IMG/VR virus record: IMGVR_UViG_3300025530_000275 | Span: 32,001 to 96,000 of that record | Length of the DNA: 64,000 nt | Source of the DNA: a virus | Direction: 5' to 3' (one strand) | Part shown: piece after piece, positions 4,940 through 63,989 of the stretch | Layout: the number at the start of each line of letters is the position of its first letter | Position numbering within the stretch: position 1 is the stretch's first letter | Position numbers and translations under genes: made by a program | Notes under the pieces: model-generated | Told to the model about the DNA's origin: nothing | The model's database searches: none | The model's input: only the letters and a program-made list of their open reading frames with translations

Positions 4940-4951
4940 AACACACAGATA
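4940..4951 (+). promoter_or_regulatory. late-type promoter AACA-N6-TA
   Basis: AACACACAGATA upstream of RNAP subunit. Confidence 0.65.
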
Positions 4952-4969: not shown

Positions 4970-6565
4970 ATGGTGTTCATAATGAAGCTCCACAAAGCTG
5001 ATATTGATAGAATAGTTCAGCTAAATGGTCTGCGACCTGTTAGCGGACCTGTTCCTATTGATAAGGGTTTGCCCACAGATGATTCTGTTTTTTCCTATAG
5101 CATTTTTGGACAGACTTCTTATGAAAGACAGAATATACCCGCATATATAGATCTTAAAGGACAGTATTTACATCCCTTGACTTACCATAACCTTAGGCTG
5201 ATAGATCGAAATTTTGAATCCTGTATCTCAGGAACACAGAATTTTTCTATAAAGGATGGAAAATTAACTCCCGATCCGGATGGTGAATCTGGGCTAGATT
5301 TTCTTTATAAGAATTGGGATAAATTAAAGTTTGAAGAACGTAAATCTGTTCTTTCTAATGAAAGAATAAAAAATGTTAAAGATAAATCTAAAGCATGGGT
5401 AACTAAATGGATTATCCTTCCTGCATTCTATAGAGATGTTAACTATAATGAGGAAGGGCGTCCGGCATATGATGAATTGAATGACTTGTATCTGTATATT
5501 ATAAGAATGGTAGAAAGTGTGGCTCAACAGGAGCAATATGGCCTAGTCTCAAATATCACTAAAGCAAGAATACAATTAGCATTGGTTGATATTCATGATA
5601 GAATTACTCATATGCATCTAAGAGAAAAGAGAGGCACATTTAAAAAATATGTATTAGGTAAAAATACAGATTTTGGTGCAAGGCTGGTAATATCGGCACC
5701 AATTGTTTCTGGCGACACATACGATCAGGTACAAGTAAGATTTGGTCGCATAGGAGTACCTCTTTCAAGTGTGTGTGCAATATTTATGCCTTTTGTGATT
5801 CATGGAGTTAGAGAGTTCCTACAGAATGAATTTCAGTTATCTGGTAAATATCCATATAAAAACGAAAAAGGGGAAATTGAGTATTTAACCTTAACAAATC
5901 CCGAATATTATACCTCCGAAGAATATATTATAAAAATGATAAAACGGTTTATTTATGGAACATCTACAAGGTTTAGACCTATTGAACTTCCTGAAAACGA
6001 AGAGGGTAAAAAAGGATATTTATATTTAACAGGCAAATTTGGTAAGGATCAAACTACAGTTTCTAATAGACCAATGACGTGGACCGATCTTTTATTCATA
6101 GTATGTAGCGACAAATTGGCTGATAAGCATGTTTACTTTACTCGATACCCAATTGAGGATAGTTTTGGTATAAATCCTTCTAAATTTACTATTCTCACTA
6201 CAAAGAAAACAATGCCTGCTCTTATTGGTGATAAATACTATCAATTTTATCCGATAGTAAATGTGGGAGAGGATAGTAGTATTGCATTTATTGACACTCT
6301 CCATGTTCATAATAGCTATCTTCCGGGGCTCGGTGGAGACTATGACGGAGATATGCTTACTCTTACTGGCGTATTTAGCGAAGAGGCCAATCAAGATGCG
6401 GAAAGATATATGCAAGACAAAAAATATATTATGACTTTGGTTGGAGAAAATATCAGAATTATTCAAAGGGACTTTGTTCAAACCTTATATCAATTTACCA
6501 AACAGCCAAAATCGGGGGATGGCATTCCTGAATTCAAAAATCTTTCAAGAGTTGCGAAATTTTAA
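4970..6565 (+). CDS. phage RNA polymerase beta' N-terminal subunit (probably virion RNAP)
   Basis: VFSYSIFG, YIDL..YLHP, ILPAFYRD, LGKNTDFGARLVI, RYP, catalytic GGDYDGD; late promoter and no N-terminal Zn motif suggest virion enzyme. Confidence 0.88.
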   Translation: MVFIMKLHKADIDRIVQLNGLRPVSGPVPIDKGLPTDDSVFSYSIFGQTSYERQNIPAYIDLKGQYLHPLTYHNLRLIDRNFESCISGTQNFSIKDGKLTPDPDGESGLDFLYKNWDKLKFEERKSVLSNERIKNVKDKSKAWVTKWIILPAFYRDVNYNEEGRPAYDELNDLYLYIIRMVESVAQQEQYGLVSNITKARIQLALVDIHDRITHMHLREKRGTFKKYVLGKNTDFGARLVISAPIVSGDTYDQVQVRFGRIGVPLSSVCAIFMPFVIHGVREFLQNEFQLSGKYPYKNEKGEIEYLTLTNPEYYTSEEYIIKMIKRFIYGTSTRFRPIELPENEEGKKGYLYLTGKFGKDQTTVSNRPMTWTDLLFIVCSDKLADKHVYFTRYPIEDSFGINPSKFTILTTKKTMPALIGDKYYQFYPIVNVGEDSSIAFIDTLHVHNSYLPGLGGDYDGDMLTLTGVFSEEANQDAERYMQDKKYIMTLVGENIRIIQRDFVQTLYQFTKQPKSGDGIPEFKNLSRVAKF

Positions 6566-7504: not shown

Positions 7505-9013
7505 TTATATCGCACTTAACGCGTAAAGTTCAGACAGTACAATCGCATAGTCTTTAATAAACGACATGCGTGTACTATATTTGCCATTTGTTCTAGAGAT
7601 ATAATTATATCTTGGGCTGAGAGTATATTCAAATGTCTTAATGAGTCTCCAATCTTTGAGAGGGATATAAGCAAGAGAATCACCATCATAATCTCCAGCA
7701 AATCCATCTAAAAGACTTGGACTTAGACTAAGAGTCAAATCATCTATATCGTCTTTGACCTTTCTTACTCGAAGTAATCTAAAAGATCTATCGGAGATTG
7801 ACGGCTGTCTATTTACCAGCACACTTATAGGAGTTTTACTTCTATCCACAATATTCTGAGCCAAAGCATGTATTTTTGGATTGAATTCTCTTAATGCTCT
7901 ATTCAGAATTGTGTATGCTTCGTTTTCAGTTATATTGTCGAGTCTTCTTAGAAGATATAGAATTTCTAATTCCAGAAATGTTATTGCTGTTACGTATGGA
8001 ATATCAACCTCATCCGGCTTAAGATCTTTTCCGTTCACGATAACAGATCTTGCACCATAGTCAATTCTTACTCCCCCAAATTGGGATCTAAACAATCCTT
8101 CTTTCCCAGCATAGGAGTCCACGATGAACTCATATAGCTCCATATATTCATACTGGATCTCAAAGAGTGCTGGAAGAATTGTCAACATATTACCCACATC
8201 AAGGGAGATCAATTCATATTGTTTCATTATAGTATCATAGTGTGTATTTGCTTTAAATGAACGAATTTTCTCATCAGATTTTATCAGCGGTCTCAATATC
8301 GCACTATATACAGGAATATAAGACGTGAAAATACAATCTTTATATTCCATTACCAACTCATAGATATCTTTCTTTTTTGGAAATTTCTTATAGTAAAACT
8401 CGATTATTTCATCGATCTTCTCCCTAAATTCCAGCATTCCAATATGTGCGTAAGGAGATTTAGGAGATCTTTCATAAATGATATTTCCATTAGAATCCAT
8501 TTTAGAGACATCAACTTTTAGAATATTTCTAATTTCATTTTTTCCAATGAGCATCTGAAGATGGATGAACAATGCTGGGTTAATAACACAATATTCGCCC
8601 AGAGGAATCCATCCCATTATAGTCAGGTCAGCATCAATGAACTCAACTGGTGTTCCGCATTTAGGACAAATTTCATCAATGAATATCGCACCAGCCAAAT
8701 TGCCACACTGGCATCTATACATATCTTTCGTCCCAAGCTGGTCATCGAATTGGGTATGACCAAACTTAGGAGAAAATATCCCATCGACAGTCTTTGTATT
8801 GTTTTTGCCGATAGAGACTGGGTTTGTAATGAGAAAATCTTTCCCCTTTTTCAGTCGCTCCTCGGCAATTTTATTCAGATTGAGTTTAACCAACCTTTCA
8901 GATTTAATTGCTTTTCCGTATTTTTCAAAATAGCGTTCGATTTTGGGGAGCTTGAATTGTTTTACGTCTCCAAGATCCAAAACATCCCCATTACTCATTA
9001 TTTCAATTCCCAA
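7505..9013 (-). CDS. phage RNA polymerase beta' N-terminal subunit (probably non-virion RNAP)
   Basis: DGIFSPKFG, CQCG...CPKCG zinc site, GWIPL, RIDYGARSVI, NRQPS, catalytic AGDYDGD; in early-promoter operon. Confidence 0.9.
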   Translation of the reverse strand: MGIEIMSNGDVLDLGDVKQFKLPKIERYFEKYGKAIKSERLVKLNLNKIAEERLKKGKDFLITNPVSIGKNNTKTVDGIFSPKFGHTQFDDQLGTKDMYRCQCGNLAGAIFIDEICPKCGTPVEFIDADLTIMGWIPLGEYCVINPALFIHLQMLIGKNEIRNILKVDVSKMDSNGNIIYERSPKSPYAHIGMLEFREKIDEIIEFYYKKFPKKKDIYELVMEYKDCIFTSYIPVYSAILRPLIKSDEKIRSFKANTHYDTIMKQYELISLDVGNMLTILPALFEIQYEYMELYEFIVDSYAGKEGLFRSQFGGVRIDYGARSVIVNGKDLKPDEVDIPYVTAITFLELEILYLLRRLDNITENEAYTILNRALREFNPKIHALAQNIVDRSKTPISVLVNRQPSISDRSFRLLRVRKVKDDIDDLTLSLSPSLLDGFAGDYDGDSLAYIPLKDWRLIKTFEYTLSPRYNYISRTNGKYSTRMSFIKDYAIVLSELYALSAI

Positions 9014-26731: not shown

Positions 26732-26765
26732 GGTGAAGGATAGGGAATAGTTCCCTATCCTTCAC
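26732..26765. terminator. terminator between convergent genes
   Basis: GTGAAGGATAGGGAA/TTCCCTATCCTTCAC. Confidence 0.8.
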
Positions 26766-27472
26766 TTATTTTTTTTTATCTTTTCCTTCCATAAATCATA
26801 TATAGAATTTGCTATAATTTCAGGTGGATACCATTCATTAGATGAGTTAAATTTTCTTGTAGCAATCGGGTCCCAATTTTTTAGTGATATCAATGTATGG
26901 AGAAATTGCTCAACTTCTCCTTGATAGTTTATATCTCTTTCATTTATATCTAATTCTTTTCTATTACTCATAGCCTCTCGGGAGCTTTTCGAATCACTAA
27001 TAAGGACAAATACTCTATTAGGTTTAGGTATACGGAATAACTTATGCTCTATAAATTCTATAAAATTGGAAATACTGATCTTATCTTCATATGTTTTACC
27101 CTTAGCGCCCTGGTACAGCATATTTGAAGTACTATATCTATCAAATATTACAAAATCATAGTTTTTGATAATCGATTTTACTTTAGTATAGTACCCAATT
27201 ATTCTATCAAATGAATAGAATAATGATGCGATTCTTGGAGGAACTGAGTAGGGAGATTTCCCAAATTTTCCTTTAAGAAACCATCTTACAAGAAATGAGT
27301 GCCATTTATCATACATAGGAAAAGATACGGTTAAAACTTTATAGCCATCCTCTGTTAGAATATCATATAACTTTTTTGTAGTGGTTTCCTTTCCCGAACC
27401 GTCCAATCCTTCGATTACAAAAATATAAGGTGTCTTTTTCCCCACAATTTTCTCCCCTTCTATTATAATCAC
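26762..27472 (-). CDS. tmk: thymidylate kinase
   Basis: IEGLDGSGKET P-loop, SFP, FDRYSTSNMLYQ, PKP. Confidence 0.88.
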   Translation of the reverse strand: MIIIEGEKIVGKKTPYIFVIEGLDGSGKETTTKKLYDILTEDGYKVLTVSFPMYDKWHSFLVRWFLKGKFGKSPYSVPPRIASLFYSFDRIIGYYTKVKSIIKNYDFVIFDRYSTSNMLYQGAKGKTYEDKISISNFIEFIEHKLFRIPKPNRVFVLISDSKSSREAMSNRKELDINERDINYQGEVEQFLHTLISLKNWDPIATRKFNSSNEWYPPEIIANSIYDLWKEKIKKNK

Positions 27473-27540: not shown

Positions 27541-28755
27541 TTAATCAAGCATTTTCATATTGTCAAATACTTTGGCAACCTGCTCTCTCATTACAGCTTC
27601 GCCAAGACCAAATTTATATTTGGCTACACCTATGACTGCACCTTTAAGGTATGCATCTTTAATTGCCTCAGCAGCCCAATGATCTGAAGGCACGTCTTCA
27701 TAAATGTCAGGAACTTCCCAAAAGTCATCGACTGTAATGAGGCCAAGATTTTCGAGAATTTTTACAAACTGCTCTCTAGTAAGAGTATCTCCCAATCCAA
27801 ATTTTTCAGAGGAGATACCATTAATGATGCCGGTCGTATATGCTTTCTTAATAGAATTAATAGCCCAATGGTTGTCAGGAACATCCTTGAACGGAAAATC
27901 TTCTCTAATGATAGGTTTATCATTCATAAGTCCAAGCCTATCAATTACCGCAACAACTTCTTCGCGTTTTACTTCCATATTAAGACCAAACTTTTTGTCC
28001 CCAATACCACTCATGATTCCTTTATTATATGCTTTCTTAATAGATTCAGCAGCCCAGTGATTTTCCGGGACATCGTCAAACATTTCAAGAGTTTTTATAG
28101 GTTCAATAACTACTGGAGGTTCAGGCTGCTCAACCTTTTCTTTATATTGACCCCAGAAGATTTCAGGATTGAAGCATTCATTTAAATCGACATTAATTCC
28201 ATTGACCATAATATCATTCTTATATTGATATAGATCGGCATATTTCGAGAGTTTTCCTTTACTCCAGGCATAGGTTTGCCAGAAGTATTTACAAGCCCCT
28301 CGTTTAGCCATCTCTTCGATTACGTCGAATTTACCATATATTCCGGCAAAATAGTCATCTCCGAGAATTTCTTGTGCGCCTTTCAAAAATGCTTCAAATT
28401 GGTCGTAATCCGATTTAGGGGCATCATAATCTACAGCAAAGAAAATTGCGCTCTTTTTAGGCTGACCAAGGGCAATAGCGCGTTGTTTGGCTTTATTAGC
28501 AGCAACTTTCCCTGCACTGTACCCATATTTGGGACCATCTTTTCCTTCTTGGAAAACCGAACCGATCATAAATCCGGCTTTCTTAAGGTTTTCAACCTCT
28601 GTTTTGGAGAAATATTTCCAAGATTCAGGTCCTGCGAGGTAACGTATGAAGAAGCTCCCAAATTTCCCATTTTGATAACTTGCAAGACTTTTAGCCTGAG
28701 CTAAACTAAGGCCAGCGCCTCTGTCATATCCGAAGATACTTGACATTGTTATCAT
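27541..28755 (-). CDS. endolysin: GH25-like (DUF1906) muramidase + three SLH domains
   Basis: FFIRYL, IFFAVDYD, GIYG, WQTYAWS, VDLN; three F.DVP..HWA...I....G...G..F......REE/Q repeats. Confidence 0.88.
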   Translation of the reverse strand: MITMSSIFGYDRGAGLSLAQAKSLASYQNGKFGSFFIRYLAGPESWKYFSKTEVENLKKAGFMIGSVFQEGKDGPKYGYSAGKVAANKAKQRAIALGQPKKSAIFFAVDYDAPKSDYDQFEAFLKGAQEILGDDYFAGIYGKFDVIEEMAKRGACKYFWQTYAWSKGKLSKYADLYQYKNDIMVNGINVDLNECFNPEIFWGQYKEKVEQPEPPVVIEPIKTLEMFDDVPENHWAAESIKKAYNKGIMSGIGDKKFGLNMEVKREEVVAVIDRLGLMNDKPIIREDFPFKDVPDNHWAINSIKKAYTTGIINGISSEKFGLGDTLTREQFVKILENLGLITVDDFWEVPDIYEDVPSDHWAAEAIKDAYLKGAVIGVAKYKFGLGEAVMREQVAKVFDNMKMLD

Positions 28756-37239: not shown

Positions 37240-37998
37240 TCACACAGTCACGTCCCTAAAGCGCAGGCGGATGTACTGGATCAGCGCCAGATACTCCTCG
37301 CCGTGGCGGTTGCCGTCGTGTCTGCTCTTGACTGCGGCCTCGAACTCATCCAGCGTGCCGCGGAAGCATCCACGCGTTACCTCGATTTCGCCATCTTTCC
37401 TTGTATATACAGTTATAGTGCCGTTTTCTAAGCCGACAGAGCTGGCCCAGAAAACGTGTTTGATAGATTCGACCATCGCGTCGCCAGATACCCGAGCGTC
37501 GCCAGATACCCGAGCGTCGCCGTATACCCAAGCGTTGCCGGACACTTGAGCGTCTCCGGACACTTGGGTGTCACCGAACACCCGAGCGTCGCCGTATACC
37601 CAAGCGTTGCCGGACACACGAGCGTCTCCGGACACCCTCGCGTTGCCGGACACGCAAGCGTCATCTGACACCCGAGCGTCGCCAGACACCCGAGCGTCGC
37701 CGTATACCCAAGCGTTGCCGGACACCCTCGCGTTGCCGGACACACGAGCGTCTCCGGACACCCTCGCGTTGCCGGACACACGAGCGTCTCCGGACACCCT
37801 CGCGTTGTCGTAGACACAAGCTTGGTCTGACACCCAAGCTTTGCCTACTTGGTCAAGGTTTTTTTCGCTGGCGATCCAGCCGCCGAGATCGCCAACCTTA
37901 ACCCCGATCTCAGGGATGTCCTTGACGGCTTTAATTTGATATAGTGTGATTCCCGACCACGCCTTTTTGTTATCTGTAAGGATGTATTTTTTGGACAT
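37240..37998 (-). CDS. hexapeptide-repeat beta-helix protein of temperate-phage type
   Basis: LYQIKA..D...V..GDLGGWI..E.NL, 20 VSG(D/N)AR-type repeats, C-terminal TRGCFRGTLDEF...H; start set at ATG after GGAAGGAAAG. Confidence 0.85.
   Translation of the reverse strand: MSKKYILTDNKKAWSGITLYQIKAVKDIPEIGVKVGDLGGWIASEKNLDQVGKAWVSDQACVYDNARVSGDARVSGNARVSGDARVSGNARVSGNAWVYGDARVSGDARVSDDACVSGNARVSGDARVSGNAWVYGDARVFGDTQVSGDAQVSGNAWVYGDARVSGDARVSGDAMVESIKHVFWASSVGLENGTITVYTRKDGEIEVTRGCFRGTLDEFEAAVKSRHDGNRHGEEYLALIQYIRLRFRDVTV
37474..37833 (-). repeat. 18-bp coding tandem repeat x20
   Basis: 360 bp encoding VSGDAR/VSGNAR/VYGDAR/VSGNAW units. Confidence 0.95.
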
Positions 37999-38108
37999 TT
38001 TCTTTCCTTCCTTTCCGGCTCCATGGTATAATGGAGCCAAATATAGATTTTTGTTTTGCCGCCTTTTTAGGCAATTTTTCTTTTTACAGCTCCGCTTTGA
38101 CCTACGGC

Positions 38109-39125: not shown

Positions 39126-40649
39126 TCAAAACATTTCTATCAATCTAATCGTTTCATCAATGATCATGTTTTCATTGATTTCAATGTCGACACCAAGAAG
39201 ATCTTTATTTTGATGATCAACATAAGTTAGTGGATTATTGATGAATGTACCGATATATTTGATGATAATGTTCTCATTGATACTGGAGGACACATCTTTA
39301 TATTGCTTCATAAGATTATAATATCTTGGAAAAGATTTAATCTTGGCCAATTTCTTAGCCCCGATTTTTCTTCCCTTAATACGATTAGAGGGTTTACCAG
39401 TAATAAGATTAGGTACGACCCTAAACCCTCTTCTATAGAGTTCTTCTTTCATAATGATTATCAGTTTAATAAAGTCTTTTCGTTTAATAAACTTCATATT
39501 CTCTAAGCCTTTAAAGTCGTCCGCAAAGAATTGGAGTACCATGTTAGTTTGAGTCATGGACATATCGAGATTCTTTTCGTAAAATTCCATGTCCTCATCC
39601 TTAATCTCTACTCCATATTGTTGTATAAGTTTCTGGATCTTATGTTTACTTCCTTCAGATGATATAATAATATCCCGCTCATCAATTCTAGCAGCATTCA
39701 TTTCCAGTTGTTCAAGACCAGACATTTTGCTATCAGATCTTTTTGTATTGATGTCTGAATAGTCGTGAGTATCTTTTCCTTCTATAGTATACTTTAATGC
39801 ACCTCTGATGCCTACATAGTTCAAGTTTATAAGTATTTTATCAAACTCATATTTATATAGTAAATCCTGAATAATCATTTTGGTTATTCTAGTTTTCTCA
39901 GAGGCCGGAGTGATACCTTTATTTTTATTTCTCTTCCACATACCGCTATCGGTATGTGTGGAATTCTCCACAATTTTGTCAACGGTTGCATAAAGTTTAT
40001 TATAAATATTAGTGTCTTCTTCGAATAATGGAAAGAGTGCATAGAAGCAGTGATAAAGATACTTCTTCATCACTATATCTTCTACCATATCTTTTCTAAC
40101 TGAATAATAGTGAGAAATGATTGGTATAATAATTTTGATAGCAGTGCTAATAGCCATAAGAATCTTTCCATGTTTATTAGTGAACTGATATGGGTTCTCC
40201 TTATATTTTTCATCTTTATCAGACGAAACCTCAAGGTCAACCCTATATTGTTCCTCAACAAATAGCTTTACTTTTTGAACCATAGATTCGCTAAACATTT
40301 TGTTTACAATATCATTAATAAAGCTTTTGAACGTATAAGTAAGATTCTTGAGGTCTATCATCACCTTCATATTAATGTAACAAGTGATAAGTTCTTTATC
40401 CGGGTCATAATAATTCATGAAAATATTAATCGTGTCACAAATGAGTTTTCCTTTCTTATAAAAGGCCGGACGGGGGATGTAAAAGATGTTTAGACCTCTC
40501 TTCTCAATGTTAGGAAAAACTTTCTCAAAATCACAAATAAAAGTATCCCTTTTTCCAAGACGAAACAGAGTAGTTTCATTAGTTAAATACTTATGCGGTT
40601 TACAGACATCGGCTCTCATTCGTTCACATTTCCCCTCATCTTTCTTCAC
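39126..40649 (-). CDS. non-virion RNAP promoter-specificity (sigma-like) subunit, AR9 gp226 / phiKZ gp68 family
   Basis: Colinear motifs with AR9 gp226 as recalled (FEKVF, VEEQYRVDL, YQFTN, IIIPII, NIYNKLY, TDSGMW, SGLEQLEMN, GFRVVPNLI); two genes from chaperonin as in AR9; early promoter; start may be ATG 40619. Confidence 0.75.
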   Translation of the reverse strand: MKKDEGKCERMRADVCKPHKYLTNETTLFRLGKRDTFICDFEKVFPNIEKRGLNIFYIPRPAFYKKGKLICDTINIFMNYYDPDKELITCYINMKVMIDLKNLTYTFKSFINDIVNKMFSESMVQKVKLFVEEQYRVDLEVSSDKDEKYKENPYQFTNKHGKILMAISTAIKIIIPIISHYYSVRKDMVEDIVMKKYLYHCFYALFPLFEEDTNIYNKLYATVDKIVENSTHTDSGMWKRNKNKGITPASEKTRITKMIIQDLLYKYEFDKILINLNYVGIRGALKYTIEGKDTHDYSDINTKRSDSKMSGLEQLEMNAARIDERDIIISSEGSKHKIQKLIQQYGVEIKDEDMEFYEKNLDMSMTQTNMVLQFFADDFKGLENMKFIKRKDFIKLIIIMKEELYRRGFRVVPNLITGKPSNRIKGRKIGAKKLAKIKSFPRYYNLMKQYKDVSSSINENIIIKYIGTFINNPLTYVDHQNKDLLGVDIEINENMIIDETIRLIEMF

Positions 40650-40655
40650 TACAGT

Positions 40656-40666
40656 AATAATATATA
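40656..40666 (-). promoter_or_regulatory. early-type promoter TATATATTATT
   Basis: Exact motif. Confidence 0.7.
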
Positions 40667-40719: not shown

Positions 40720-41496
40720 TTAAATACGTTTTGCCCGTTTTGCTGTGGACGCCTTTTTCGCCCTAACTGAAATTGAAGCCGTTTTTGGTTTAGCGTCGTT
40801 TTTCTTCACAGCATCAATAGTATGTTCTCTTCCACGTATTTTTTCACGCTGTTCTTTTTTCTGTTGTTCGCGCTGCTTTTTCTTCTCAGCAGATTTTTTC
40901 TTTTGATCAATTTCTTTAGCTTTCATTATTTCAGAAAATTCTTTTAATTCTTTCAATAACTCCCTAAGATTTAACTTTGATGAAAATCTATCTACATCAT
41001 CAATACTAACAAAATTGTCCTTTATATATTTACAGGCATAATAAATACTCTTCTCAAGACCGAGTAGTCTATGAGGGTTTCTTACTTCAGCAAGCTCTTT
41101 TACTGCCTGTGAGGGCAACATTCCTCTTAATTCATCTATCAGCATCTTATTTCTCCTAAATGTGTTAGCGAAAGTGAACACAAATGAAGGAGAATTGCTG
41201 ATAGCTTTCATGGGCCAATTTAAGAAGTTTGCATCTTTAGATTGAAAAGACCTATCAATTTTGATTACAATATCATAGTATAAGTCCGGAGTAGTCTCAG
41301 ATGGAATTAATAAATGGAAATAATAGGCATTCCGATGATTATAAATATGAGTTTGAAATTTTTCATGGATATCAAGTAATGCCTCATATCTTGCATCATA
41401 TTCATTTTTAACTATTCTTAAAGAGCCAGCAGCTGACCCTTTTCCCAGGGGATTATTTATATACTGATTGATACTTAAAGTCATTAATTTCACCAC
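40720..41496 (-). CDS. conserved jumbo-phage protein with basic tail
   Basis: NPLGKGSA, IPSET...YDIVI, SNSPSFVFTFA; late promoter. Confidence 0.7.
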   Translation of the reverse strand: MVKLMTLSINQYINNPLGKGSAAGSLRIVKNEYDARYEALLDIHEKFQTHIYNHRNAYYFHLLIPSETTPDLYYDIVIKIDRSFQSKDANFLNWPMKAISNSPSFVFTFANTFRRNKMLIDELRGMLPSQAVKELAEVRNPHRLLGLEKSIYYACKYIKDNFVSIDDVDRFSSKLNLRELLKELKEFSEIMKAKEIDQKKKSAEKKKQREQQKKEQREKIRGREHTIDAVKKNDAKPKTASISVRAKKASTAKRAKRI

Positions 41497-41574: not shown

Positions 41575-43335
41575 TTACAAAGTGGCGTCCCACTCATTAT
41601 AAATGTCTGTCATAATTGTATTGGAGGTTGCCAATACAAGCGCGGAATCGATAGCCTGTTCCACAATAAGAATATCAGTAGCAGCAGGGTTAATAATAAC
41701 ATTTGCAAATTCATCATCAGATGCAAGATTTACAACTACAAAAACAGGATGATTTTCAAATTGAGTATCTACAGAAATTACAGTATTACCATTATCGTTA
41801 ATAGTAATTCTCTCATACGCATCCGCTGTCAAAATATACTGGAAAAATTCATCATCATTGGATAACGTGACTCTATTAGAGATAAGCTTTCTGTATACTT
41901 CAAGATATGCCTTGAGAATGATTTTCAAAAGATCTGAATATACATTATTCATGCTAGGATCTGCTTTATATTGTTGAATAAGAAGTTGATAGATTACGTT
42001 CATAGTAGAAATATTACACCCAGCAAAAAATCCAGTCTTTAATGCAGACTGAAGGGCTTTAATTCCATCTTCCGCAAGACGATAATTGATCGTTTTTCTT
42101 TGAGTTGTATCGCCGCCAACGAAGATGGTTGTTGTACCATGCTTCAATCTTGCAATACGAGCTTTAAGTCTATTGATTTCACGCTGAGCTTCCAATGCTT
42201 CATCCTTTGACACATTGGGATTCTCATTGAGATACTCAAGTTCCAGAATTTTATCTTCGATAGATTTGATATGATTATCAAGCTCTTGAGATTGTTTAAA
42301 TCCTGCAAGCGTTACTTTCTTGTCCTTAATCAGAACATTTTCCGCGTAACCTTTATTAATAGTACCAATAGTTTCTTTAGTCAGCTCAAGTCCTTCTTCG
42401 AGATATGCACAACCAGAAGATTTAATAAGATCATAGAAAGTATCTTTATCTTGAAGAATATTTGCAGTGCTATATACAACGGCCATATTATGCAAATATT
42501 CAGGTTGACGTTGAGAAAGGGCCTCGATAAATCTCAGGAAATTTTCATTCTTTATTCCAGAGCAAATGATTAAGAGAGATTTCCCGTTAAGTTTAAGATG
42601 GTTAGCATAGTCTACGATATCGTTATTGATCGTAAGAGCTCCATCAACTACAATAATTTCAACGTTTTTGAGCTTACAAGTTTCGATATCGTAGTTATTA
42701 AATGCTTGATTGATGACACGACCTTTGATGGTCATACCTTTAGTATTAGAGTAATAAGTAGAATCGCTAGAGCTATAGTCGAGTACAATATTTGTATCCT
42801 CAAAATTTTCAAGATTCTCATATACTTCAATAATTACATCAGTCAATTCTTTATTTCTATCCGTAGACGTATATACGAGATGAAATGCATCATCTTTAGA
42901 TTCGATTTTAGATGCAGCGTTTTTCAACAATCCTACGATGCCTCGTTGAATATGTTGTGCTGCATTATAAATAGAAGACGGTGTGTATTTCTTCCAGATT
43001 TCGCGATTTTCGCGAAGTTGTTTATATACCTGTGCCATGATGAGGACGGCAGATGTTGTACCGTCACCGACAATAGTAGCCTGTCGCTGAGCAACTTCAA
43101 TTGCCATTTGATGAACGGTGCGCGCAATGCTGCTGTCCATTTTCATCATCGTAAGATTTTCAAGGCCGTCTTTGGATGATTTGATTTCACCTGGGCCGAG
43201 CATAAAGATATTATGAGTACCACCAGGTCCATACGTTGCACCGACTGTATTGGTGATAATATCAAATACGTGAGATACAGTCCCGTGAAATGTTGCCGGA
43301 TTACAGATATTTTGTTTGAAGTACTCTCTGTCCAT
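41575..43335 (-). CDS. groEL: phage GroEL-like chaperonin
   Basis: TYGPGG, SKDG, VGDGTTS, IFVGG, AEDG, INP. Confidence 0.9.
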   Translation of the reverse strand: MDREYFKQNICNPATFHGTVSHVFDIITNTVGATYGPGGTHNIFMLGPGEIKSSKDGLENLTMMKMDSSIARTVHQMAIEVAQRQATIVGDGTTSAVLIMAQVYKQLRENREIWKKYTPSSIYNAAQHIQRGIVGLLKNAASKIESKDDAFHLVYTSTDRNKELTDVIIEVYENLENFEDTNIVLDYSSSDSTYYSNTKGMTIKGRVINQAFNNYDIETCKLKNVEIIVVDGALTINNDIVDYANHLKLNGKSLLIICSGIKNENFLRFIEALSQRQPEYLHNMAVVYSTANILQDKDTFYDLIKSSGCAYLEEGLELTKETIGTINKGYAENVLIKDKKVTLAGFKQSQELDNHIKSIEDKILELEYLNENPNVSKDEALEAQREINRLKARIARLKHGTTTIFVGGDTTQRKTINYRLAEDGIKALQSALKTGFFAGCNISTMNVIYQLLIQQYKADPSMNNVYSDLLKIILKAYLEVYRKLISNRVTLSNDDEFFQYILTADAYERITINDNGNTVISVDTQFENHPVFVVVNLASDDEFANVIINPAATDILIVEQAIDSALVLATSNTIMTDIYNEWDATL

Positions 43336-62771: not shown

Positions 62772-63989
62772 CTATGCTTTTCGATTCAGTGCATATCTTC
62801 TACCAAAATTGTTACAAGATCCTGTACACCACATGGTTTTAAGTTGTACCTTGGATAAATTATCCAAGTCAATTTTTGGAAAATCTTGATGAATTTTATG
62901 CTCGGGGTTGGATAATTCCAAACTTCTTTTATATTTGATGAAAGTTTCTTTAGTTTGTCTCATAATTTCATTTTGTGCCTGACAGCAAAGTCTTTCATAA
63001 CATTTAAGGATAAAATGTTCATAAAGCCCTCTCTCATTTACGAGAACTTCTGTTGCTTGAGGATATGAGTCTTCTGGGAGAGAAATGAGATCCTCAAGCC
63101 ACTCATCTTGATAAGAGGTATTCTTAATCAGATTCGGAACGTATAAGCGAGTTGTACTGTTTTTAGCATCTAAATTATCCATAAACGCCATATAATGCAG
63201 TGTCCTATGGCGCTGAGCTTGTGCCAATTGAGCAAATGATGCCCAATAGTAGGTGCTGTATACATCATCAAAATAATCAGTCGGATTTTCAGGGGCTTTC
63301 CTAAGATTAAACAAAGAAAGCTTTACATTTTTATTTTTTCTATTCATTCCTTCAACTTCAAAAGGCTTCAGTGTTTCAAAAAACTTAATAATCTGTTTAT
63401 TTAGCTTTGTAAAAAATGGATGACCTGGATATTGTTCTTGATTTTCACGAATGAACTTTACAAGCATTTCAATCAGATAATTAATTTGGCAAAGATTTGT
63501 TGTATATACCATGGTGGTGGGTGTAAATACGCTGATTACGTATCTAGCATTTTCCATTGCAAGTTTTTTAATATGATTATCTTTAAGTAGAGGATATTCC
63601 TTTTTGATCAATTCCTCGAAGATAGAACACCATTTTTCGTAAAGTGTTCGCTCACCTTCAGAAATTTTTTTCATTTTTGTATATCTTGCAGATTTCTCAG
63701 AAGTAGTATATGGTTTTTCATTATTAATAAGCATTGCTACAATTTTTGGAATATCCCTGAATACCAGAGTATAATGAACGTGCTGATATACCGAATGATG
63801 ACCGCTGTTCAAAGTGAGATCAATTCTTCTTTGAGTTTTCTCAATATCTTCATTTAAAATAGATTCAATGTCATCCTTCATATAACAAACACCTGCGGCA
63901 TAGGATGACAATTTTAATGCTTCGTCAATGGGTATTGTATATCCAGTTTTTGTCGAACCCAACACAATTGTTTGCAAAATAAAACACAT
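62772..63989 (-). CDS. thyX: FAD-dependent thymidylate synthase, tandem Thy1 domains
   Basis: GHHSVYQH, SEKSARY, ENARYV, second domain AQAQRHR and ERLC..AQ.EI. Confidence 0.85.
   Translation of the reverse strand: MCFILQTIVLGSTKTGYTIPIDEALKLSSYAAGVCYMKDDIESILNEDIEKTQRRIDLTLNSGHHSVYQHVHYTLVFRDIPKIVAMLINNEKPYTTSEKSARYTKMKKISEGERTLYEKWCSIFEELIKKEYPLLKDNHIKKLAMENARYVISVFTPTTMVYTTNLCQINYLIEMLVKFIRENQEQYPGHPFFTKLNKQIIKFFETLKPFEVEGMNRKNKNVKLSLFNLRKAPENPTDYFDDVYSTYYWASFAQLAQAQRHRTLHYMAFMDNLDAKNSTTRLYVPNLIKNTSYQDEWLEDLISLPEDSYPQATEVLVNERGLYEHFILKCYERLCCQAQNEIMRQTKETFIKYKRSLELSNPEHKIHQDFPKIDLDNLSKVQLKTMWCTGSCNNFGRRYALNRKA

Follow-up and report, generated by a model that had tools for sequence, protein, structure and literature searches.

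An AR9-type promoter-specificity subunit with glycine at the site of AR9 V206, from a phage whose DNA very probably contains thymine

We show that an uncultured 207-kb phage encodes an orthologue of AR9 gp226, the sigma-like subunit that gives the non-virion RNA polymerase its promoter specificity, and that glycine occupies the position of AR9 V206 in this protein. The phage probably has the AR9 system of late transcription in a form that acts on thymine DNA, and this form is not a one-residue switch. In AR9, a distance of 3.9 A separates V206 from C5 of the -10 uracil, the V206G mutant accepts thymine at -10, Y210 stacks on the -9 G, and Arg363 of the beta-N subunit stacks on the -10 base (PMC9209446). 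The explanation that we consider clearly the most credible is an AR9-type system acting on thymine DNA, with a base pocket remodelled at several walls and with a glycine that is compatible with thymine but represents one clade's solution. An earlier sequence-only reading, which had stated the AR9 facts on V206 and V206G correctly, proposed a thymine-DNA counterpart of the AR9 system; the gp226 orthologue, the late promoter and the thymine genes support this, but the glycine alone may not explain the reading of thymine. The window analysed, meaning the whole stretch of 64,000 nucleotides, is part of a single 206,953-base viral contig that was rated complete, and its features are listed in Table 1.

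Table 1. Features of the window, with positions counted from its first nucleotide
Feature	Position	Strand	Evidence or remark
gp226-type sigma-like promoter-specificity subunit, non-virion RNA polymerase	39126..40619	-	phmmer, PHROG, model, synteny
Gly codon GGT at AR9 gp226 V206 position	39942..39944	-	phmmer alignment, model, motif spacing
Arg240 codon at AR9 Y210 position	39930..39932	-	invariant in Gly clade
TATATTAT, early-promoter-like motif	40657..40664	-	directly upstream of sigma-like gene, after terminator-like hairpin
Conserved upstream neighbour, orthologue of gene adjoining AR9 gene 226	40720..41496	-	E 2.7e-30 to AR9 neighbour; PHROG 20045
GroEL-like chaperonin	41575..43335	-	gene order as in AR9, BpSp, phiR1-37
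RNA polymerase beta'-N with DYDGD motif	7505..9013	-	PF00623; E 3.6e-41 to AR9 ORF
Second beta'-type subunit with DYDGD	4970..6565	+	E 1.7e-64 to AR9 ORF; AACA-N6-TA at 4940 upstream
Late promoter AACA-N6-TA, example	4940..4951	+	motif search
Other intergenic AACA-N6-TA starts	2120, 20029, 24407, 49414	+	motif search
Other intergenic AACA-N6-TA starts	2107, 14156, 15317, 19536, 30555, 31864, 41518	-	motif search
Predicted ThyX, tandem-type flavin-dependent thymidylate synthase	62772..63989	-	PF02511 E 1.1e-16
dTMP kinase family protein	26762..27472	-	PF02223 E 2e-18
Glycoside-hydrolase endolysin	27541..28755	-	S-layer homology domains
Beta-solenoid repeat gene	37240..38040	-	PF18836

The open reading frame at 39126-40649 on the minus strand encodes 507 amino acids when counted from a GTG at 40649. 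Translation probably begins at an ATG ten codons in (40619), since this is where homologues start and since an early-promoter motif lies just above the GTG; the protein would then have 497 amino acids and the glycine would be residue 226. A phmmer search against the PDB matched residues 34-484 to AR9 gp226 (7s01_A) with an E value of 2.5e-17, and the protein also matched PHROG 25005 (E 3.8e-25), which together place it in the gp226 family by full-length homology. An AlphaFold2 model (pLDDT 92) aligned with 7s01_A over 457 residues (Z 28.7), the rmsd of 19 coming from a domain shift, and its C-terminal domain alone aligned with 7um1_A with Z 15.5 and rmsd 3.3. phiKZ gp68 was matched with Z 12.5-12.7, and the scores of both 7s01_A and gp68 were far above those of unrelated folds. 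The model predicts all parts of the gp226 fold, namely an N-terminal domain, a sigma-2-like domain with the 2.1bis helix, and a C-terminal domain. We conclude that the product is an orthologue of AR9 gp226; by analogy, the predicted role of the subunit is to bind the core and to be needed for promoter-specific initiation.

The gp226 family comprises 406 clusters at 50% identity. A relative (G001) has a second, truncated gp226-like gene (L003:14774-15553), which encodes 259 amino acids of the N-terminal part only, carries isoleucine at the 206 position and is closest to a distant clade; the window's own genome lacks a copy of this kind. Another relative (G053; L115 and L123) encodes two full-length gp226 paralogues, each with proline at the 206 position, and shows a strong AACA-N6-TA signal. 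In many relatives (L011, L012, L017, L074, L085, L093 and L109-L113) the sigma-like gene lies in two frames with an insert between them, and these split genes are probably due to introns.

Both AR9-type RNA polymerases are present in the phage. Four split core subunits are encoded, beta-N with an E value of 1.7e-51 to 7s00_c, and beta-C, beta'-N and beta'-C found by AR9 homology and Pfam. The beta'-N listed in Table 1 probably belongs to the non-virion enzyme as the counterpart of AR9 gp270, and the second beta'-type subunit probably to the virion RNA polymerase. Beta-N itself is encoded in the phage's own genome (L199:5364-7286) and has 640 amino acids, its C-terminus being about 140 amino acids longer than that of AR9 gp105. 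Outside the window, at L199:16797-17987 of this genome, lies a Tubulin/FtsZ-family gene (PF00091), for which no AR9 homologue was found. The PF18836 gene close downstream of the sigma-like gene is missing at the same place in a relative of 89% identity. The S-layer homology domains of the endolysin suggest an S-layer-bearing host among the Bacillota. The bacterial genome collection contained no relative.

Promoter counts were restricted to regions upstream of genes. There AACA-N6-TA was the top spaced motif and occurred 39 times, compared with 12.8 times on average and 22 at most in shuffles, and the spacing of 6 stood out; AR9, used as a positive control in the same upstream test, gave 68 sites against a shuffle mean of 19.3. 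Across the whole window the count was not above chance (25 against 20.8), because coding sequence swamps the signal. The earlier claim that the AR9 late consensus is kept is borne out upstream of genes only. All four bases of AACA are under selection, including the A at -11 and at -10. Most sites are located 20-60 bases ahead of a start codon, and the sites precede large genes and virion-polymerase genes, such that the AACA-N6-T[A/G] consensus of AR9-type late promoters is found upstream of late genes. The motif directly upstream of the sigma-like gene matches the one described for MarsHill early promoters, and AR9 gene 226 likewise has an annotated early promoter. A late motif at the two probable virion-polymerase genes and an early motif at the sigma-like gene correspond to the regulatory logic of AR9. 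By its fold and its consensus, the system probably recognizes the template strand, as in AR9. A different motif in one relative (G024) was rejected as repeat-derived coding sequence.

We infer from gene content that the genome very likely consists of thymine DNA, since ThyX, a dTMP kinase and a dUTPase are present and neither Ugi nor a dCMP deaminase was found. ThyX and thymidylate kinase had both been named in the sequence-only reading, and both are indeed encoded in the window. The predicted ThyX has a Thy1 domain above the PF02511 cut-off with RHR and S-x-R-Y, and its motifs GHHSV, SARY, ENARY and QRHR are conserved across homologues; against the TIGR02170 equivalog it scored below the cut-off. 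In this two-repeat form RHR and S-x-R-Y lie in different repeats, and 4,555 relatives share it; our literature search found no paper on it. A dTMP kinase was not found in AR9 or S6. The dUTPase is encoded in the phage's own genome, outside the window, and scored above both NCBIfam cut-offs, and a search for the dimeric dUTPase family gave no matches. Ugi was found in the AR9 control and not in this genome, which is weak evidence as the profile detects the protein of AR9 only and not that of S6; dCMP deaminase was likewise found in the AR9 control and is absent here. The genome contained no ThyA-family gene, which argues against hydroxymethyluracil, and the thymine-hypermodification family PF18723 had no match in any genome, controls included.

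According to a published survey, a uracil jumbo phage is determined by its lack of thymidylate synthase and dUTPase (PMC7824862), and the cultured AR9-clade phages tested fit this rule. The present phage encodes both enzymes, and it has glycine and tyrosine where the uracil clade is marked by valine at gp226 position 206 and arginine at beta-N position 363. We regard it as very improbable that its DNA nevertheless contains uracil, wholly or in part, and that its enzyme still reads dU. The A kept at -11 and -10, where AR9 needs dU in the template, speaks for such a genome, and no mechanism for -11 T is known, but dUTPase, ThyX and dTMP kinase oppose the use of dUTP, and Ugi and dCMP deaminase were not detected.

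The segment T-D-S-G-M-W contains the glycine, and in the phmmer alignment with AR9 gp226 D-S-G-M-W pairs with D-V-V-I-W, so that G236 (in 507-residue numbering) corresponds to V206. The anchor is free of gaps, since the K-[LI]-Y-x17-W spacing is identical in both proteins. The codon and the assignment to position 206 thus agree with the sequence-only reading. In the model, G236 is the second residue of a short predicted helix at the place of the AR9 2.1bis helix. Among 17 close relatives of 53-89% identity, glycine is found in 15 and arginine in two; the Asp, the Met, the Trp and the Arg at the AR9 Y210 position are each present in 17 of 17, the residue preceding the glycine is variable, and the glycine codons are both GGT and GGA. 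At the 206 position, the lineages nearest to this clade have Pro, Ser, Gln, Val or Ile. The glycine that had been described as a natural Val-to-Gly change is confirmed in place but not as a change from valine. In the literature outside subscription journals, we found no account of Gly206 occurring naturally and none of thymine phages with AACA promoters; the AR9 structure paper described the valine as absolutely conserved among the twelve homologues then available (PMC9209446).

The glycine is not the only difference from AR9. At the beta-N Arg363 position tyrosine was found in 4 of 4 Gly-clade genomes and in 0 of 27 others, most of which keep arginine, and beta-N Lys375 is retained in 3 of the 4. 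From these sequences, the whole pocket looks remodelled in the Gly clade, differing from AR9 on both walls. The joint presence of glycine and beta-N tyrosine in one clade is a co-occurrence, not co-evolution. It is conceivable, with somewhat less than even odds in our judgement, that in this clade the bulky tyrosine of the partner wall makes the glycine a requirement for thymine, in which case the pocket would be co-adapted and a valine would block -10 T. The near-uniform glycine amid a variable adjacent residue and two different codons, the confinement of Tyr363 to the Gly clade, and the AR9 mutant, which shows that such an effect is possible, agree with this. However, two members have arginine, and a weak promoter signal is still seen in one of them (G004, with Arg, Tyr363 and ThyX); moreover, one clade amounts to one event, and the glycine could serve helix packing.

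The residue at position 206 was followed across the family by aligning the query with 172 homologues. Glycine (30) and valine (29) were commonest in this column, ahead of Lys (17), Ile (15), Thr (14), Leu (12), Pro (10) and others, and the conservation of the column by entropy ranked 413 of 470, which places it in the most variable 15% of the protein. We compared residue and gene content in 60 subunits from 59 long genomes in which ThyA and ThyX were scored; the Val/Ile sister clade yielded no viral contigs for it. Among the 46 rows with thymidylate synthase were Thr (10), Val (7), Gly (6), Ile (6), Pro (5), Lys (5) and Leu (3), and valine was found in 9 of the 14 rows lacking it. Glycine was not predictive (6/46 versus 1/14, p 1). 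Valine was in excess among genomes lacking thymidylate synthase (9/14 versus 7/46, p 8e-4), but this excess stems from the AR9 clade and gave no signal in independent pairs, a test of low power here.

The sequence-only reading had gone further and offered residue 206 as a marker of U versus T genomes in this group, which implies a switch in which Gly admits thymine and Val excludes it. We hold such a switch to be highly improbable. The engineered AR9 V206G, the valine in 7 of 7 cultured AR9-clade phages examined, the raw association of valine just given, and the thymidylate synthase and dUTPase in all Gly-clade genomes that have the glycine are all in its favour. Yet valine or isoleucine occurs in 13 of the 46 rows with thymidylate synthase (seven and six rows) and glycine in six, and five of the Val genomes (G012, G034, G040, G042 and G044) also have a dUTPase-family gene. 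Promoters of relatives were tested on samples of 80-100 kb, and in the five Val genomes with thymidylate synthase tested, the count of ACA-N6-TAA equalled or exceeded the highest of 100 shuffles, the -10 A being retained. The model of one homologue of this Val group placed the valine in the same helix register, so valine together with thymidylate synthase is not a misalignment. Conversely, Ser or Thr is found in two AR9-clade genomes that lack thymine genes; G005, at 90% completeness, has glycine and no thymidylate synthase, dUTPase or dTMP kinase. The variable column, valine alongside thymine genes, the retained promoter and the restriction of the association to a single clade lead us to reject residue 206 as a U/T marker. 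Four near-complete genomes, G005 (L007), G017 (L026), G018 (L028) and G015 (L022), have no thymidylate synthase or dUTPase and carry Gly, Ser, Thr and Val, respectively, at position 206; they are candidates for uracil DNA, and the GC content of G015 is 64%, unlike that of cultured uracil phages.

The promoter was retained alongside V, I, L, P, S, T, G and R at position 206; with Ile, Leu, Pro, Ser or Thr, AACA-N6-TA was present in most of the genomes sampled. These data bear on a further explanation, to which we give a chance not far below even, that the glycine is incidental, being kept for local structure or by descent, and that thymine-type enzymes hold the -10 base in a different way. An incidental glycine fits the variability of the column, in which the same promoter is found with Pro, Lys, Arg, Leu and Val alike; against it stand the near fixation of glycine in its clade and the only solved structure, where this position forms part of the wall of the base pocket. 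Whether the glycine is needed or merely tolerated in this clade, we rate about equal.

Under the reading that we prefer, a thymine-DNA system with a pocket remodelled at several walls, the sigma-like subunit would be made early and join the four-subunit non-virion core. The holoenzyme would be directed to AACA-N6-TA late promoters and open them on thymine DNA, for which it would have to accept T at template positions -11 and -10. If the template strand is read as in AR9, as fold and consensus suggest, the -10 base would be flipped between the 2.1bis helix and beta-N, where the glycine would leave room for the thymine methyl and may help. In this clade several walls of the pocket differ from AR9 together, with Gly where AR9 has V206, Met where it has I207, Arg where it has Y210 and Tyr where it has beta-N Arg363, Lys375 being kept; the roles of these single residues are proposed. 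Most of the family combines thymine-synthesis genes and this promoter with almost any residue at 206, valine included. Strict uracil dependence thus looks like a property of the whole pocket of the AR9 clade.

A bolder version, which we put forward tentatively, is that the Gly clade has a natural, co-adapted, thymine-reading AR9-type pocket (Gly206, beta-N Tyr363 and Arg210) that also solves the clash at -11; a promoter system widespread on thymine DNA would then have specialised late, in AR9, towards uracil dependence. If true, the enzyme of this phage would read the template strand of ordinary DNA as a sigma-independent polymerase. The AR9 structure paper ties this promoter type to uracil DNA (PMC9209446), but the same promoter occurs in many phages that have thymine-synthesis genes and almost any residue at 206, and uracil dependence seems to belong to one clade. 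Residue 206 is unfit for calling uracil genomes, which are better recognized by their lack of thymidylate synthase and dUTPase. The value of these results lies in the family-wide pattern more than in a single codon, and this phage offers a direct test case for how T is taken at the two positions -10 and -11, a point left unexplained by the AR9 structure.

The closest known system is gp226 and the non-virion RNA polymerase of AR9/PBS1 (PDB 7S01, 7UM0, 7UM1; PMC9209446, PMC5449584), to which the match is full-length in sequence and fold. The two phages share the neighbouring GroEL, conserved upstream and primase-type genes, the split beta and beta' of two polymerases, the early promoter on the sigma-like gene, the AACA-N6-TA late consensus and beta-N Lys375. 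They differ in the pocket, which has Gly/Met/Arg here for V206/I207/Y210 and Tyr for beta-N R363, and in gene content, with ThyX, dTMP kinase and dUTPase here and Ugi and dCMP deaminase only in AR9. At about 24% identity, the pocket geometry of AR9 may not transfer. The engineered AR9 V206G (PMC9209446) has the same residue at the same position as the natural glycine, but it is reported to accept T at -10 only, whereas the natural enzyme would have to take T at -11 and -10 and its other walls differ. AR9 requires the -11 uracil nearly as much as that at -10 (PMC5449584), and this requirement has been ascribed to a clash with the DNA's own backbone and not to V206 (PMC9209446). Since the A at -11 is kept, an enzyme acting on thymine DNA should differ from AR9 by more than V206G; proline at 206 likewise cannot donate the backbone hydrogen bond of AR9, yet the promoter is kept in G053, which again points to pocket differences beyond V206G.

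The non-virion RNA polymerase of phiKZ, with gp68 (PDB 8QUE, 9RJS; PMC7618050), has a homologous sigma-like subunit and works on thymine DNA; its promoter is TATG at the start site and identity is 10-12%, whereas this phage has the AR9 consensus. The gp226 orthologues of phiR1-37, BpSp, LPJP1 and the Staphylococcus phages S6, Machias and SA1 belong to the same family and share the helix register. All of them have valine and no thymidylate synthase, and they form one clade with AR9 (support 100); the protein encoded in the window falls outside this AR9/S6/phiR1-37 clade, in a separate clade that also has support of 100.
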